Made by a program: the position numbers and the translations under genes. This document shows, piece by piece, positions 8,723 to 43,659 of a stretch of 64,000 bases of DNA (positions are counted from its first letter, which is position 1; every line of letters starts with the position of its first letter). The stretch comes from a virus, in the IMG/VR virus record IMGVR_UViG_3300024496_000012. One strand, given 5' to 3'. A model generated the notes under the pieces. The model saw only the letters and a program-made list of their open reading frames with translations, ran no database searches and was not told the DNA's origin.

Positions 8723-8988
8723 AAAAGATATTTTTAATACTTCCTATGTTATTTTTAACAGGTTGTGCAACCACTGTTCCTGTACACATGAGCTTTCCAC
8801 AGGTCCCAGAAGACCTGATGCAGCCCTGTCCTGATCTTAAAAAAGTTGACACCAAAACAGACAAACTCAGTGATGTCTTATCTACTGTCACGCAGAACTA
8901 CGGTCAGTACCACGATTGTAAAGCCAAGTCAGATGCGTGGGCACAATGGTTCAGAACACAGAAGAAGATATTTGAGGATATCAAATGA
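8719..8988 (+). CDS. Probable outer-membrane spanin lipoprotein (Rz1-like)
   Basis: Lipobox LTGC, Pro-rich segment (FPQVPEDLMQPCP). Confidence 0.7.
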   Translation: MKKIFLILPMLFLTGCATTVPVHMSFPQVPEDLMQPCPDLKKVDTKTDKLSDVLSTVTQNYGQYHDCKAKSDAWAQWFRTQKKIFEDIK

Positions 8989-9389
8989 AAAGATTATTAG
9001 CAATATTCTTACTAACACAGGCACTAACAGGCTGTGCGTTGTATGATGCGTACTTCATGGCCAGATTTGATAATAACGAATATTCATTGATCAACAGAAT
9101 ACGCACAGAAGCCAACCTAGGTGCTGCCAAATGCGGCAAGCCCGAAGTTGTCGAAGTAGTAGATCGTATGTGGTACACCGCAGTTGAGTTTAGAAACTAC
9201 AGTCAATCTATTCCGCATAACGAAGAAACAACAAAAATGGGCAATGAGCTAGCTGAGATAGTAAAAGGGCTCAGCGAAAGATATCATGGCAAAGAGCCAG
9301 TTAGTATGATGTATTGTACTACCAAGTTTAGTAGTATCGAACGTAATGCTGTTAACATCCAAAACGTCGTAGGAGCGAAACCAAGATGA
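8985..9389 (+). CDS. Second lipoprotein of unknown function
   Basis: Signal peptide with ALTGC lipobox. Confidence 0.7.
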   Translation: MKRLLAIFLLTQALTGCALYDAYFMARFDNNEYSLINRIRTEANLGAAKCGKPEVVEVVDRMWYTAVEFRNYSQSIPHNEETTKMGNELAEIVKGLSERYHGKEPVSMMYCTTKFSSIERNAVNIQNVVGAKPR

Positions 9390-19243: not shown

Positions 19244-19389
19244 TGGACAAAACTCTTAAAGACTATATCGAAAGAACGACAAAACGTCTAGAAGAAGAAA
19301 ATAAGTCACCGGAGCCTCAACAATATCCGGTATACCCAGAAAATAATAACGAAGAAGATACTCCTAAAAATCCTTACGGACAACACTAA
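19243..19389 (+). CDS. Small acidic protein, 48 aa (not in ORF track)
   Basis: MDKTLKDYIERTTKRLEEE...; TAATG-coupled on both sides. Confidence 0.7.
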   Translation: MDKTLKDYIERTTKRLEEENKSPEPQQYPVYPENNNEEDTPKNPYGQH

Positions 19390-20561
19390 TGAAAGCAGCA
19401 GATCTACACTTACCAGAAGGAATGGAAGTCTATGTAGACATGGACGGTGTGATCGCGGACTTCTTTACAGAATATGCTAAACTTGCAGGAGTAAAAAGCG
19501 GTAACTACAGAGACATTCCTCCCGCCAAGGCAGATCCTACATTAGATAAGATGGTCGGTACTGATTTCTTTTTTAGGCTTCCTAAGTTTCCAACAGCAGA
19601 TAAACTTTTAGATATAGTAGTCGATGCTGCCGGAAGTTATAAGATCTGTTCAAGTCCTCTTAGAGGAGATCACGAGAACTCAGGTGTACAAAAGCGTAGA
19701 TGGATTCAAAAGAATCTACATGTACAACCTAAAGAAATCATTATAACTCCTAACAAGGCCAAATATGCTAAAAGTCCCAATGGACTTCCTAACGTATTAA
19801 TCGACGATCGAGGAAGCAATATAACATCATGGGAAGCTGCTGGCGGCATCGGTATCAAATATCAAGCAGACGAAGACAGTCTTAGAGTTATCTTAGACGG
19901 GCTTAAACGTGCCAGACGTGTAGCCAAAGGCGAACAAGATCACGAGCCTCAACAACTTGTTAGCAAAGATAGAGGTGGTAGTAACGCTATTGCTACAGCA
20001 AAAGATGAAAGCATCAGAGAAGACTATCATCCACATCAGAAAAAAGTAGAACACTTTATAAAATGGGTTTACAAAAAGCTAAACCTACACGATCCCCTAC
20101 CAGAGATTATTTTTAGTAACAATACTAAGTTAGCAAAAAGCAAACATAGAACTGGTTATTTTAATAAAGAGAAAAATGTAATATATGTCTATACAGGACA
20201 TAGAAATCTAGTAGATATCTTTAGAACCCTAGCGCATGAAATGACTCATGAAAAACAGGGTGAAGAGGGTCGTATACATGGACATAGTCCTCCCGGGAGT
20301 CCCAATGAAATGGATGCAGATTCCAAAGCAGGATATCTGATGAAACTTTATACCAAGTCGCATCCTGAAATAATCGACGGTTCGTTAACTAAAGAAAACT
20401 TCGCGGACGGTAAAGGTCCTGGTCGTCCGGGTGATAGCCAACGTCACGGAATACCCAAAAAAGCTACTATGGCTGAACTAGAAAAGGCTTCACATGCAAA
20501 AGGGCGTAAAGGACAACTGGCCCGCTGGCAGATAAATATGCGTAGAGGGCATAAAAAATGA
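19389..20561 (+). CDS. HAD 5'(3')-deoxyribonucleotidase-like domain fused to a HExxH metallopeptidase-like domain and a basic tail
   Basis: DMDGV, LIDDR (HAD); LAHEMTHE; ENFADGK...ARWQINM tail. Confidence 0.8.
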   Translation: MKAADLHLPEGMEVYVDMDGVIADFFTEYAKLAGVKSGNYRDIPPAKADPTLDKMVGTDFFFRLPKFPTADKLLDIVVDAAGSYKICSSPLRGDHENSGVQKRRWIQKNLHVQPKEIIITPNKAKYAKSPNGLPNVLIDDRGSNITSWEAAGGIGIKYQADEDSLRVILDGLKRARRVAKGEQDHEPQQLVSKDRGGSNAIATAKDESIREDYHPHQKKVEHFIKWVYKKLNLHDPLPEIIFSNNTKLAKSKHRTGYFNKEKNVIYVYTGHRNLVDIFRTLAHEMTHEKQGEEGRIHGHSPPGSPNEMDADSKAGYLMKLYTKSHPEIIDGSLTKENFADGKGPGRPGDSQRHGIPKKATMAELEKASHAKGRKGQLARWQINMRRGHKK

Positions 20562-21640: not shown

Positions 21641-21670
21641 AAAGCCAGTCATAGGTTGACTGGCTTTTTT
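21641..21670 (+). terminator. Rho-independent terminator
   Basis: AAAGCCAGTCA-taggt-TGACTGGCTTT followed by a T run. Confidence 0.8.
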
Positions 21671-21684
21671 TATGACTATATACT
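21656..21684 (+). promoter_or_regulatory. Sigma70-type promoter for the replication operon
   Basis: TTGACT-17 nt-TATACT. Confidence 0.7.
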
Positions 21685-21707
21685 TGTCTTATAGTCAGGA
21701 GAAACTA

Positions 21708-21968
21708 ATGGCAAAAATCTATGGTCCGGAAGAAAAAGCAAAACTAGAAAGATTGATCAACGAAGGATCAAATGTCCTACGCGAAGTAGAAGATCTGCAA
21801 GAAGGTCTTAAAGAAACAGTCAAGGCAGTAGCAGAAGAACTACAACTTAAACCAAGTATTATCAATAAAGCTATTCGCATCGCACATAAAGACAACTGGA
21901 AAGATCACGAAAACGAATGGGAAGAAATCGAAGGTATTCTTGGTGTTACTAAACGCTTACCAGAATGA
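21708..21968 (+). CDS. Small helical dsDNA-binding protein (T4 DsbA/GapR-like)
   Basis: LxxLINE...LKETVKAVAEELQLKPSIINKAIRIAHK pattern; AGGAG SD. Confidence 0.55.
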   Translation: MAKIYGPEEKAKLERLINEGSNVLREVEDLQEGLKETVKAVAEELQLKPSIINKAIRIAHKDNWKDHENEWEEIEGILGVTKRLPE

Positions 21969-22255
21969 TAGACTTATTAAAACCAACCTTTGATTGGATA
22001 CGAGATGACTGGAACAGTAATCCTTTCCGTTTTATTGTTGAGCTTGTCGCTTGGGCTGTCAGTATTGGGTGCAGTATTACTATGGCTGTTACTGTCCCCA
22101 ACCCACCACTTCTCGCTCTTTATCCTGTTTGGATCTCTGGCTGCGCCATGTATGCTTGGGCTGCTTATACTAGGAAATCATTTGGCATGTTGGCTAACTA
22201 CATCTTGTTGACCAGTATTGATACATACGGTCTGATAAGAATGCTAACTAATTAA
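21965..22255 (+). CDS. Small multi-pass membrane protein
   Basis: Several hydrophobic segments. Confidence 0.65.
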   Translation: MIDLLKPTFDWIRDDWNSNPFRFIVELVAWAVSIGCSITMAVTVPNPPLLALYPVWISGCAMYAWAAYTRKSFGMLANYILLTSIDTYGLIRMLTN

Positions 22256-22265
22256 TATAAGGTTC

Positions 22266-22313
22266 GATCAGCCATAAATGATCAGTTGGGTATTTGCGAG
22301 CCGAAAATCGCAA
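22266..22313 (+). promoter_or_regulatory. Tandem hairpins abutting the polB SD (candidate translational operator)
   Basis: GATCA-gccataaa-TGATC and TTGCGA-gccgaaaa-TCGCAA. Confidence 0.6.
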
Positions 22314-22323
22314 GGAGAAAAAT

Positions 22324-24993
22324 ATGAGTTACGTTGACGCATTCTATGATCGCGAAGACGACATTATTCGTGTCGTTGAGCGCAATGAAAAAGGTGAAAG
22401 GCATTTTAAAGATTATCCTGCCAAGCATCTTTTCTATTATTACGATCCCAAGGGCAAGTATCAAAGTATCAAAGGTGAACCACTCACCCGTGTAGTCTGT
22501 AAAAATATCAAAGAACTACGAAAAGAACTTGCTATACATTCAAACAAAAAGCTATACGAATCAGACATCAATCCTATCTTTAGATGTCTAGAAGACCATT
22601 ATATCAACATTGACGCTCCAAAACTAAATGTAGCATTTTTCGATATTGAGGTCGATTTCGACCCTGCTAGAGGATATGCTAGCCCAGACGATGCATTTAT
22701 GCCTATCACATCTATCGCTGTGCATCTACAATGGGTTGACACATTAGTTTGTTTAGCTATGCCACCTAAGACGCTATCTATGGCTGAAGCAACCAAGGCT
22801 GTAGAAGATTTTCCTAATACCATGCTATTCGACAACGAAGCAGATATGTTAGATGCTTTTCTAGATCTGATACAAGATGCTGATGTTTTAAGCGGGTGGA
22901 ACAGTGAAGGGTTTGATATTCCCTATACGGTCAATCGTGTTACCAAAGTCCTAAGCAAAGAAGATACACGTCGTTTCTGCCTTTGGAACCAATATCCTAA
23001 GAAAAGAGAGTATGAAAAGTTTGGTAAGACAGCGGTCACATATGATCTAATCGGTCGTGTTCACTTAGATAGTCTTGAGCTATATCGCAAATATACCTAT
23101 GAAGAGCGTCACACTTATCGACTAGATGCGATCGGTGAGATGGAGATTGGCGAAAACAAAACAGTCTACGAAGGCACACTCGATGCGTTGTATAACAATG
23201 ACTTTAAAAAGTTTATTGAATACAACAGACAAGATACAAGCCTACTTGATAAGTTAGATAAAAAACTAAAGTTCTTAGATCTGTCAAACAAGATCGCACA
23301 CGAAAATACTGTATTGCTACAGACAACTATGGGTGCGGTAGCTGTTACTGAACAGGCTATTATCAATGAAGCACATCGCAGAGGTATGATCGTTCCTAAT
23401 CGTAAGAAGATGGAAGAACACGGTGATACACAGGCCGCAGGTGCGTATGTTGCATATCCTAAGAAAGGCATCCACGAGTGGATTGGTTCTTTAGATATTA
23501 ACTCATTGTATCCTAGTGCCATTCGTGCATTAAACATGGGGCCCGAAACTATCGTAGGACAACTGCGCCAAGATGGGACCAAAGCACACCTCGAAGCTGA
23601 AATGGCCAAAGGTAAGAGTTTTGCGGCCGCTTGGGAAGGCATCTTTGGAAGTCTAGAATACACTTCAGTGATGGAAAGAGAAGTAGGACGAGACATAACT
23701 ATCGACTGGGAAGGTGGCGGCAGCGATACCCTTAGTGCCGCTCAAGTTTATGATCTTATATTTGAAAGTAATCAACCATGGATGATCAGTGCCAACGGTA
23801 CTATCTTCACATATGAAACTGAAGGAATCATTCCTGGTCTGCTAGCTCGTTGGTATAAAGAGCGTAAAGAGATGCAGGCCAAACTTAAAGAATCTATCGC
23901 GGCAGGTAACAAGATTGAAGAAGAATATTGGGACAAGCGTCAACTGGTTAAAAAGATTAATCTTAATAGCCTTTATGGTGCAATCCTTAATCCTGGTTGT
24001 CGCTTTTTCGATAATAGGATCGGGCAATCTACCACGCTTACGGGCAGAGCTATTGCAAAACATATGGCCAGTAAAGTAAACGAAATCATTACCGGAGAGT
24101 ATGACCATATCGGTCGAGCTATCATCTACGGTGACACAGACTCTTGTTACTTCTCTGCGTATACTACGCTAAAGAAGGACATTGAGAAAGGATTGATTCC
24201 TTGGACTAGAGAATCAGTCGTAGAACTTTATGACACCATAGGAGAAACTGTAAATGGAACCTTCGTCAAGTTCATGTCAGACGCTTTCCACGTGCCAAAA
24301 TCTAGAGGAGAGGTCATCAAGGCAGGTCGCGAGATTGTTGCAAGCAAAGGACTCTTTATTACAAAGAAACGATATGCAGTCCTCTACTACGACAAAGAAG
24401 GCAAGCGATCAGACGTCGACGGCAAACCAGGCAAGATTAAAGCCATGGGGCTCGACCTCAAGCGGTCAGATACCCCGGTTGTTATCCAAGACTTTCTCAG
24501 TGAAGTCTTGACCCGAGTACTAAATGGCGTACCTAAAGAAGAAGTGTTAGAATATATCACTGACTTCCGAACCGATTTTAAAACTAGACCAGGTTGGGAA
24601 AAAGGTTCACCTAAACGTGCCAACAACATTACAGAGTATGCAGCCAAAGAAAAGAAAGCAGGCAAGGCCAATATGCCAGGTCATGTTAGAGCTTCCTTAA
24701 ACTGGAATACTTTGAAACGTATGTTTGACGACAAGTATTCTATGACTATCGTAGACGGTGCCAAGGTCATCGTCTGCAAGCTCAAAGAAAATCCTATGGG
24801 CTATACATCTGTGGCTTACCCAGTCGACGAACTGAGATTGCCGCAGTGGTTTAAAGATCTTCCATTTGACGATCATCAGATGGAAAATACCGTTATCGAT
24901 GAAAAGCTAGAAAACTTGATCGGGGTCCTTGAATGGGACATCAGTCAAACTAGAAGCGATAATACCTTTAACAAGTTATTTGATTTTGAGTGA
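22324..24993 (+). CDS. Family B DNA polymerase (T4 gp43-like)
   Basis: FFDIEVD exonuclease, SLDINSLYPS, KINLNSLYG, YGDTDS; AAGGAG SD before ATG 22324. Confidence 0.97.
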   Translation: MSYVDAFYDREDDIIRVVERNEKGERHFKDYPAKHLFYYYDPKGKYQSIKGEPLTRVVCKNIKELRKELAIHSNKKLYESDINPIFRCLEDHYINIDAPKLNVAFFDIEVDFDPARGYASPDDAFMPITSIAVHLQWVDTLVCLAMPPKTLSMAEATKAVEDFPNTMLFDNEADMLDAFLDLIQDADVLSGWNSEGFDIPYTVNRVTKVLSKEDTRRFCLWNQYPKKREYEKFGKTAVTYDLIGRVHLDSLELYRKYTYEERHTYRLDAIGEMEIGENKTVYEGTLDALYNNDFKKFIEYNRQDTSLLDKLDKKLKFLDLSNKIAHENTVLLQTTMGAVAVTEQAIINEAHRRGMIVPNRKKMEEHGDTQAAGAYVAYPKKGIHEWIGSLDINSLYPSAIRALNMGPETIVGQLRQDGTKAHLEAEMAKGKSFAAAWEGIFGSLEYTSVMEREVGRDITIDWEGGGSDTLSAAQVYDLIFESNQPWMISANGTIFTYETEGIIPGLLARWYKERKEMQAKLKESIAAGNKIEEEYWDKRQLVKKINLNSLYGAILNPGCRFFDNRIGQSTTLTGRAIAKHMASKVNEIITGEYDHIGRAIIYGDTDSCYFSAYTTLKKDIEKGLIPWTRESVVELYDTIGETVNGTFVKFMSDAFHVPKSRGEVIKAGREIVASKGLFITKKRYAVLYYDKEGKRSDVDGKPGKIKAMGLDLKRSDTPVVIQDFLSEVLTRVLNGVPKEEVLEYITDFRTDFKTRPGWEKGSPKRANNITEYAAKEKKAGKANMPGHVRASLNWNTLKRMFDDKYSMTIVDGAKVIVCKLKENPMGYTSVAYPVDELRLPQWFKDLPFDDHQMENTVIDEKLENLIGVLEWDISQTRSDNTFNKLFDFE

Positions 24994-43079: not shown

Positions 43080-43659
43080 GATCGCAGACTTTGAAAACGC
43101 TTTATCGGAGTTTACTGGTGCTCCGTTTGTAATCACTACTGATTGCTGTACACATGCTATCGAACTATGCTTTAGATATAAAAAAGTAAAAACGACCGAG
43201 TTTACCTGTTTTACATATCTCTCTATACCTATGACCATGAAAAAACTTAATATAGAGTATAAACAGATTCCAGAAAAATGGGCAGGCGAATATAGATTTT
43301 ATGGTACAGACATATGGGATAGTGCCAGAAGGTTGCAACCCGGAATGTACATGCCTGGTATGATGCAATGCCTTAGTTTTGGTTACTCTAAACCTTTAGA
43401 CATCGGCAGAGGCGGAGCGATATTATTAGACAACTATGATGATTATAAGTCATTGTCTATGATGAGATATGATGGGAGAGATTTATCTATCTCTCCATGG
43501 CAGTCACAAAAAGAGTTTACTTTAGGATTTCATTATAAACTCAATCCAGAAGAATGCATAAAAGGTATTGAAAAACTGGAAGAATATAAGAATAATAAAA
43601 ACTTCAACATAGCATTTGTAGAATATCCAGATTGCAGAGATATAAAAATAAATGATTAG
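43069..43659 (+). CDS. DegT/DnrJ/EryC1/StrS PLP aminotransferase, minimal form
   Basis: CCTHAIEL, IWDSA, SFGYSKPLDIGRGGAIL with PLP Lys. Confidence 0.8.
   Translation: MFNKIADFENALSEFTGAPFVITTDCCTHAIELCFRYKKVKTTEFTCFTYLSIPMTMKKLNIEYKQIPEKWAGEYRFYGTDIWDSARRLQPGMYMPGMMQCLSFGYSKPLDIGRGGAILLDNYDDYKSLSMMRYDGRDLSISPWQSQKEFTLGFHYKLNPEECIKGIEKLEEYKNNKNFNIAFVEYPDCRDIKIND

Follow-up and report, generated by a model that had tools for sequence, protein, structure and literature searches.

Two tandem RNA structures, each predicted to be a compact pseudoknot of the H-type whose third loop is rich in A, lie directly before the DNA polymerase gene polB in the viral sequence analysed here (IMG/VR record IMGVR_UViG_3300024496_000012; the whole stretch of 64,000 nt is called the window below). 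Judged by the sequences of related phages, the tandem hairpins on which these structures are built are real and are kept in hundreds of related uncultured giant phages. As the fold always ends at the Shine-Dalgarno sequence (SD) of one gene and occurs once per genome, it is best read as a means of cis control of translation initiation. Our leading interpretation, held tentatively and at somewhat less than even likelihood, is that the element is a translational operator of polB which would probably be bound by PolB itself (autoregulation). Operators in the leaders of phage replication genes are a kind already known; new is the duplicated mini-pseudoknot form in jumbo phages.

Structure of the polB leader in the window

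A preliminary description, made from the letters of the window alone, had placed two hairpins with 8-nt loops at the polB ribosome-binding site, and on reading of the stretch from 21900 to 22620 the coordinates of both proved exact. Hairpin 1 consists of GATCA (22266-22270), the loop GCCATAAA (22271-22278) and TGATC (22279-22283), and hairpin 2 of TTGCGA (22294-22299), the loop GCCGAAAA (22300-22307) and TCGCAA (22308-22313). As described, hairpin 2 runs into the polB SD, AAGGAG (22312-22317), which shares 1-2 nt with the stem, and the polB ATG follows at 22324. All of these features are on the plus strand. The gene (22324-24993, plus strand) encodes a T4-type family B DNA polymerase of 889 aa according to its PHROG and Pfam matches (phrog_262, 1.4e-197; DNA_pol_B and exo1); the identity to T4 gp43 is 27% over 692 aa.

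The plain hairpin with an 8-nt loop was not borne out. Instead, the GCC that opens each loop pairs with a GGU further upstream, which turns each hairpin into a pseudoknot. Unit 1 begins with this GGU, the 5' strand of helix S1 (22261-22263), followed by the 2-nt loop L1 (UC, 22264-22265), the sequence of which is variable in relatives at a length of 2-3 nt. The 5' strand of the second helix, S2 (GAUCA, 22266-22270), is the 5' arm of hairpin 1 and enters five co-varying pairs. It is followed by the 3' strand of S1 (GCC, loop nt 1-3, 22271-22273), the A-rich loop L3 (AUAAA, 22274-22278) and the 3' strand of S2 (UGAUC, 22279-22283). A spacer of variable sequence (AGUUG, 22284-22288) leads to unit 2, whose S1 5' strand is the GGU of a conserved GGUAUUUG (22289-22291; invariant in the polB-anchored set). 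L1 (AUU, 22292-22294) then precedes the 5' arm of hairpin 2 (UGCGA, 22295-22299), the invariant GCC (22300-22302), L3 (GAAAA, 22303-22307) and the 3' strand of S2 (UCGCA, 22308-22312). In the window, U22294 can give a sixth pair and A22313 lengthens the stem.

Taken by itself, the window makes the case for the element only suggestive. Both the MFE and the centroid fold of 22250-22335 contain both hairpins. The folding energy of the leader is no better than that of shuffles (MFE z -0.16), and the loop word GCCRWAAA is not enriched in the window (9 against 9.0 expected). The window has 4 hairpins with a GCCNNAAN loop, where 1.75 would be expected; the two that lie elsewhere, at 9134 (within an ORF at 8985-9389) and at 43320, gave no score with either of the covariance models R1 and R2. 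The case was built on conservation and covariation in relatives.

Conservation and covariation in related phages

The phage database held no close relative of the window phage. The nearest cultured phages are jumbo phages, namely Sinorhizobium phage Phosso, Atu_ph07 and the 121Q/Rak2-like group, with PolB identities of 51%, 47% and 43%. Relatives in IMG/VR number several hundred, the longest contig measuring 372 kb, and three sets were taken from them: the best 80 by the window PolB (87-92% identity), 80 around locus L175, whose PolB is 70% identical, and about 100 loci retrieved by the leader pattern. Pooled, these jumbo-phage contigs of IMG/VR gave 249 polB leaders, of which 159 are distinct. 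An alignment was made of 46 distinct leaders from the first set, which had been picked by protein and not by RNA.

A covariance model, proposed as a check in the preliminary description together with a search of Rfam, confirmed that the two like modules at the polB ribosome-binding site are a conserved structured RNA element: the stems co-vary and the loop positions are fixed. In the 46 leaders, 100% of the cells of hairpin 2 are paired, and two of its pairs change in a compensatory manner (CG/UA/AU and AU/GC/CG). The two-hairpin structure as a whole is 96.6% paired in this alignment, against 22-45% with the partners slid, and no shuffle equals it. The stems of hairpin 1 are diverse in the relatives and comprise GCG(n)G/CCGC, with the bulge free or absent, GATCA/TGATC, ACTCA/TGAGT, GGCAG/CTGCC, CAAACG/CGTTT, GTCC/GGAC and others. 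For unit 1, 34 distinct gapless 25-mers are 95.2% paired and show compensatory change in all five stem pairs of S2, the inner four of which are paired in every one.

Several loop positions are fixed. The polB-anchored alignment shows no variation at G, C, C, A6 and A7 of either loop, nor in the linker GGTATTTG. Positions 4 and 5 of the unit 2 loop are free, and position 8 is A or G. In unit 1, position 4 is A in 121/121 sequences and position 5 is U in 104/121; the G and the first C are invariant, and base 3 is C, with U occurring solely where the upstream triplet is AGY.

This last exchange bears on the pseudoknot. GGU, sometimes GGC, stands 2-3 nt 5' of each stem and is complementary to the loop GCC, so that a unit of about 23 nt has the order S1a (GGY), L1, S2a, S1b (GCC), L3 (NNAAR), S2b. 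S1 comprises 3 bp, L1 2-3 nt, S2 4-5 bp, L2 0 nt and L3 5-6 nt. The strands thus follow each other as a, b, a', b', both helices co-vary, and the lengths permit coaxial stacking, as in an H-type pseudoknot. All three S1 pairs of unit 1 are formed in each of the 34 sequences, as GC (30) or AU (4), an invariant GC, and UG (29) or CG (5). RNAalifold, given the alignment alone, picked the GGU:GCC helix for unit 1. Among distinct leaders, GCC in the first unit goes with GGY 127-134 times and GCU with AGY 8 times; mixed combinations occur 0 times. The S1 of the GGUAUUUG-type unit does not vary in the collected leader sets.

On the PolB tree, AGY/GCU is found in the subclade of the window (L177), in L116, and interleaved in the L175 clade. 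On well-supported branches this gives 4 independent pairs of AGY/GCU versus GGY/GCC, and 6 when every branch is counted; each pair is concordant (sign test, p = 0.125 for 4 pairs and ~0.03 for 6). Exchange of whole leaders between phages could cut these numbers to two or three independent events. A pattern scan of IMG/VR for AGU..GCU returned at least four distinct genuine polB leaders (L311, L342, L356 and L390), and the discordant patterns AGU..GCC and GGU..GCU, each with about 115 chance matches, returned 0 genuine leaders among the matches listed. The outer U.G pair of S1 would be A.C on the complementary strand, hence it is the sense-strand RNA that folds.

Two other pairings were considered. 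An S1 longer than 3 bp (AUGGU:GCCAU) was rejected as the flanking positions do not co-vary, and pairing of the GGU in the linker with loop 1 was rejected because GCU loops are compensated upstream and not in the linker. With about 160 distinct sequences supporting both helices, the element is a clean candidate for a new RNA family.

Position, relation to known elements and possible function

The element occurs once in each genome. The two-unit model R1 finds a single site in the window at 75.6 bits, the next match scoring 11.6, and exactly one site per locus in 100 loci (0.98 Mb). A structure-aware scan of 1.69 Mb of loci found no further units. The single-unit model R2 was applied to a 372-kb relative whose genome has terminal repeats and is 100% complete, and there its two best matches are the adjacent polB units. 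Among four large fragments searched with R2, both units are the best matches in one, and in the other three this holds for one unit or neither. Weak extra matches at G003:28033 and G001:104667 were rejected as copies, having the wrong loops and no SD.

The position at the SD is equally constant. The SD core begins 0-5 nt after the SD-proximal stem in 154/154 distinct leaders, the start codon 9-18 nt after it, and in 130/141 leaders the stem of unit 2 begins 11-12 nt past the end of that of unit 1. The polB start codon is UUG in 36/154 distinct leaders and AUG in the rest; UUG is a weak start, which is consistent with tightly limited polymerase synthesis.

Regarding Rfam, the element is unlike any family. 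Rfam 15, which includes preQ1, guanidine-II and phage motifs, gave no match over the window at the gathering score, and none in 22150-22420 at E values up to 10. The element is described nowhere in Rfam 15 or in the literature searched, and it may be present unnamed in a 2023 catalogue of 8495 structured RNAs from IMG/VR, the main text of which makes no mention of polymerase (PMC10690425).

The preliminary description had likened the leader to the operator of T4 gp43. This likeness stands with respect to position and logic, judged against the T4 leader and a review (PMC3014915), and fails with respect to homology to the T4 and RB49 operators. The gp43 proteins of T4, RB69 and RB49 bind hairpins located at the SD whose loops contain UAAC or UAAA, the 3' AC or AA being important; the review sees no evidence for a pseudoknot in the operator of gene 43 and states that autoregulation is lacking for some T4-related polymerases (PMC3014915). 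The T4 gene 43 leader reads AGCCU / AAUAACUC / GGGCU, 20 nt before the AUG, and that of RB49 UUUC / GUAAAU / GAAG, overlapping the SD GAAGGAG. The element shares with these operators the leader of a T4-family polB, a structure at or over the SD, a 4-5 bp stem, an A-rich loop, and its single-copy, gene-specific occurrence. It differs in having two units, each of them a pseudoknot, and a loop that opens with a paired GCC. With regard to UAAC/UAAA, the loop of unit 1 ends mostly in AUAAA, the AA is invariant in both units, and position 5 of unit 2 is free. Model R2 found no match in the gene 43 regions of T4 and RB49, and none in the 1.4-1.5 kb that flank polB on each side in Phosso, Atu_ph07, Vibrio phage 2.275.O and 121Q, the leaders of which also lack the motif by eye. 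As the fold differs and the models detect no homology, we do not assign the element to the family of gene 43 operators.

Three further systems resemble the element in part. The pseudoknot in the gene 32 mRNA of T2 and T4 is also of the H-type, lies in the leader of a replication gene and serves autogenous translational repression by gp32 (PMC3014915). It is situated far upstream, however, and nucleates cooperative binding over an unstructured A/U-rich ribosome-binding site, whereas the pseudoknot at polB itself abuts the SD, is duplicated and belongs to a different gene. The dominant RNA aptamers against HIV-1 RT obtained by SELEX, the F1Pk family, are pseudoknots bound in the primer-template cleft; one stem is short and conserved and has an ANAA loop lying in its minor groove, whereas the second stem is generic in sequence (PMC3561961). 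The architecture is the same (UCCG:CGGG in place of the GGU:GCC stem), and L3 of unit 1 reads A-Y-A-A, but the aptamers are artificial and concern another polymerase family and other sequences, so that the likeness is architectural only. They do indicate that polymerases bind folds of this design. Tandem like hairpins before an SD are found in the E. coli thrS operator and in the guanidine-II (mini-ykkC) riboswitch. These likewise have two hairpins just 5' of the ribosome-binding site with a common conserved loop and free stems; in contrast to the polB element their loops are anticodon-like (thrS) or ACGR (mini-ykkC), no pseudoknot is formed, and the ligands are different.

In the reading we prefer, the leader RNA at 22261-22313 folds into two tandem, self-contained H-type pseudoknots, in each of which the variable stem S2 stacks on the GGU:GCC helix and the A-rich loop probably lies in the minor groove of this helix, which is short and conserved. 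As the second pseudoknot reaches the SD, a factor bound there would keep the 30S off the polB start. Free PolB would be the likeliest factor, exerting autogenous control like gp43 of T4, RB69 and RB49. The structure, its conservation, its single occurrence per genome and its constant place at the SD come from the comparisons above, while translational repression and PolB as the ligand are what we infer from the analogy with gp43 and with the RT aptamers. To our knowledge, only a few T-even-type phages are known to control the translation of their replicative DNA polymerase autogenously, and we know of no structure of a polymerase-operator complex. Were the reading true, polymerase autoregulation would reach a clade of uncultured jumbo phages that is large and widespread in the environment, by means of a different RNA solution. 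Binding by PolB would in addition make the element a natural counterpart of the SELEX aptamers and a compact target, defined by covariation, for structural work on polymerase-RNA complexes.

Some observations speak against PolB as the partner. PolB is only 27% identical to T4 gp43, without homology of the operators, and neither the cultured relatives (43-51% PolB identity) nor the close relative L274 has the element. Two units at a fixed spacing of 11-12 nt would fit a dimeric protein distinct from PolB just as well, and the operator may serve a dedicated phage repressor, possibly with one subunit on each unit, or a host protein, for instance a ribosomal one. Near-identical modules so spaced are as expected of operators read by dimers, and a jumbo genome of 372 kb encodes hundreds of uncharacterised proteins. 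We nevertheless consider another trans-acting protein quite unlikely, since a separate regulator with polB as its single target, present once per genome, is less economical than autoregulation; moreover, the neighbouring small ORFs have no constant linkage to the element, and the single-unit forms described below do without a second site. RegA was ruled out as the regulator: a search with PF01818 that recovers regA in T4 and RB49 found none in the complete 372-kb relative, and the sites of RegA, unlike the one here, have no structure (PMC3014915). The main weakness of the PolB reading is that the conserved GGU, GCC and AA are all explained by the fold, hence nothing forces a protein partner. 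The compact structure 5' of the SD could act free of any ligand as an insulator of the ribosome-binding site, as a standby or enhancer site, or in protection against nucleases. An intercistronic insulator is made plausible by the apparent co-transcription of polB with two upstream ORFs, and the UUG start in 36/154 leaders suggests finely tuned initiation. This role appears unlikely to us without being far-fetched: no other gene has the element in the 372-kb genome, which must contain many intercistronic junctions, and the strict keeping of A4 in unit 1 (121/121) together with the kept tandem geometry suggests recognition by a partner.

Alternatively, a small molecule tied to the supply of DNA precursors might be sensed by the pseudoknots as a tandem cooperative mini-riboswitch that would tune polB translation. 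Some very small riboswitch aptamers have the same general fold, an H-type pseudoknot with an A-rich loop, and the tandem arrangement directly 5' of the SD and the strong covariation would agree with it; at about 23 nt per aptamer, these would be among the smallest natural riboswitches and specific to phages. We regard this as very unlikely given that there is no Rfam match even at E 10, that in most relatives the fold does not include the SD and no conserved alternative pairing (expression platform) is seen, that 3 + 5 bp leave very little room for a pocket, and that the element belongs to one gene in one phage clade, metabolite sensors usually preceding several genes. Finally, the folding energy and the chance-level frequency of the loop motif in the window would be compatible with weak hairpins arisen by chance, or with a signal at the level of DNA, for example a palindrome bound by a protein or the hairpin of an origin, instead of RNA. 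This is scarcely credible in view of the roughly 250 loci that keep pairing while the sequences of the arms change, which is the opposite of a double-stranded DNA operator, and of the strand-specific G.U pairs and the fixed position relative to the SD. Autogenous control by PolB is thus the reading we prefer, with the reservation expressed at the outset.

Variant loci and genomic context

Some leaders contain only one unit. In one monophyletic subclade there is a single unit, which is of the same type as unit 1 and joins the SD directly, and in L126 unit 2 alone is retained, behind a terminator-like hairpin. Judging from these loci, one unit of either type appears to suffice beside the SD. In the single-unit clade (L231, L237, L238, L244, L261, L265 and L278) a different hairpin is found 5' of the unit, about 40-70 nt before polB, with GCC...GGC or another co-varying stem and with variable inserts. 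At its 3' side, just before GGU/AGU, stands a conserved CAUGNAGA; the two-unit leaders have a similar (U)AGAUGGUA. The arrangement of extra hairpin and CAUGNAGA is present also in L311, L342, L356 and L390. These sequences could mark a processing site or belong to the fold. In L274 and L275, which are close to the single-unit clade, the element has been lost and only GGTAC is left before the SD; the N-terminus of their PolB is MPYV, not MSYV.

In four loci a small Cys-rich ORF is inserted between the element and polB, in each case on the minus strand of the contig: L098 (4839-4997), L105 (4646-4816), L106 (2045-2227) and L129 (409-597). All four ORFs have 53-63 aa and a CxxC...CxC pattern. The stop codon of the inserted ORF overlaps the polB start in 3/4 loci, suggesting coupled translation; the exception is L106, where polB starts a few nt downstream. 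The element adjoins the SD of the inserted ORF in these loci and so heads the polB unit. L192 has an ORF of 204 aa between element and polB, and L194 another insert at this place.

Upstream of the element, the window contains an ORF of 96 aa that stops at 22255 and a DsbA-like ORF of 98 aa (21672-21968; Pfam Phage_DsbA, 1.7e-5). Homologues of the former are present at 69/147 leaders and the DsbA-like ORF at 97/147. As the upstream genes vary, the element travels with polB, and both ORFs were rejected as its partners because the linkage is not constant. At 21641-21684 the window has a terminator-like hairpin (11 pairs and a T run) which overlaps a sigma-70-like promoter, TTGACT-17-TATACT, just 3' of it; the DsbA-like ORF lies 3' of this site. 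From the promoter-like site near 21656, polB is seemingly co-transcribed with the two upstream ORFs, and the element is probably intercistronic in the window.

Many relatives have a box resembling a T4 late promoter, TATAAATA or ATAAGTA, 8-12 nt 5' of the first GGU (for instance L013, L018, L020, L042, L055 and L061). The box overlaps the stop codon of the upstream ORF. A TATAAATA box of the T4 late type is absent from the leader of the window and not enriched in the window. Further upstream, about 2 kb before polB, the window carries a nucleotide-pool gene, an ORF of 390 aa (19389-20561) with a match to a 5'-3' deoxyribonucleotidase over its first 160 aa (phrog_2643, 1.9e-20).
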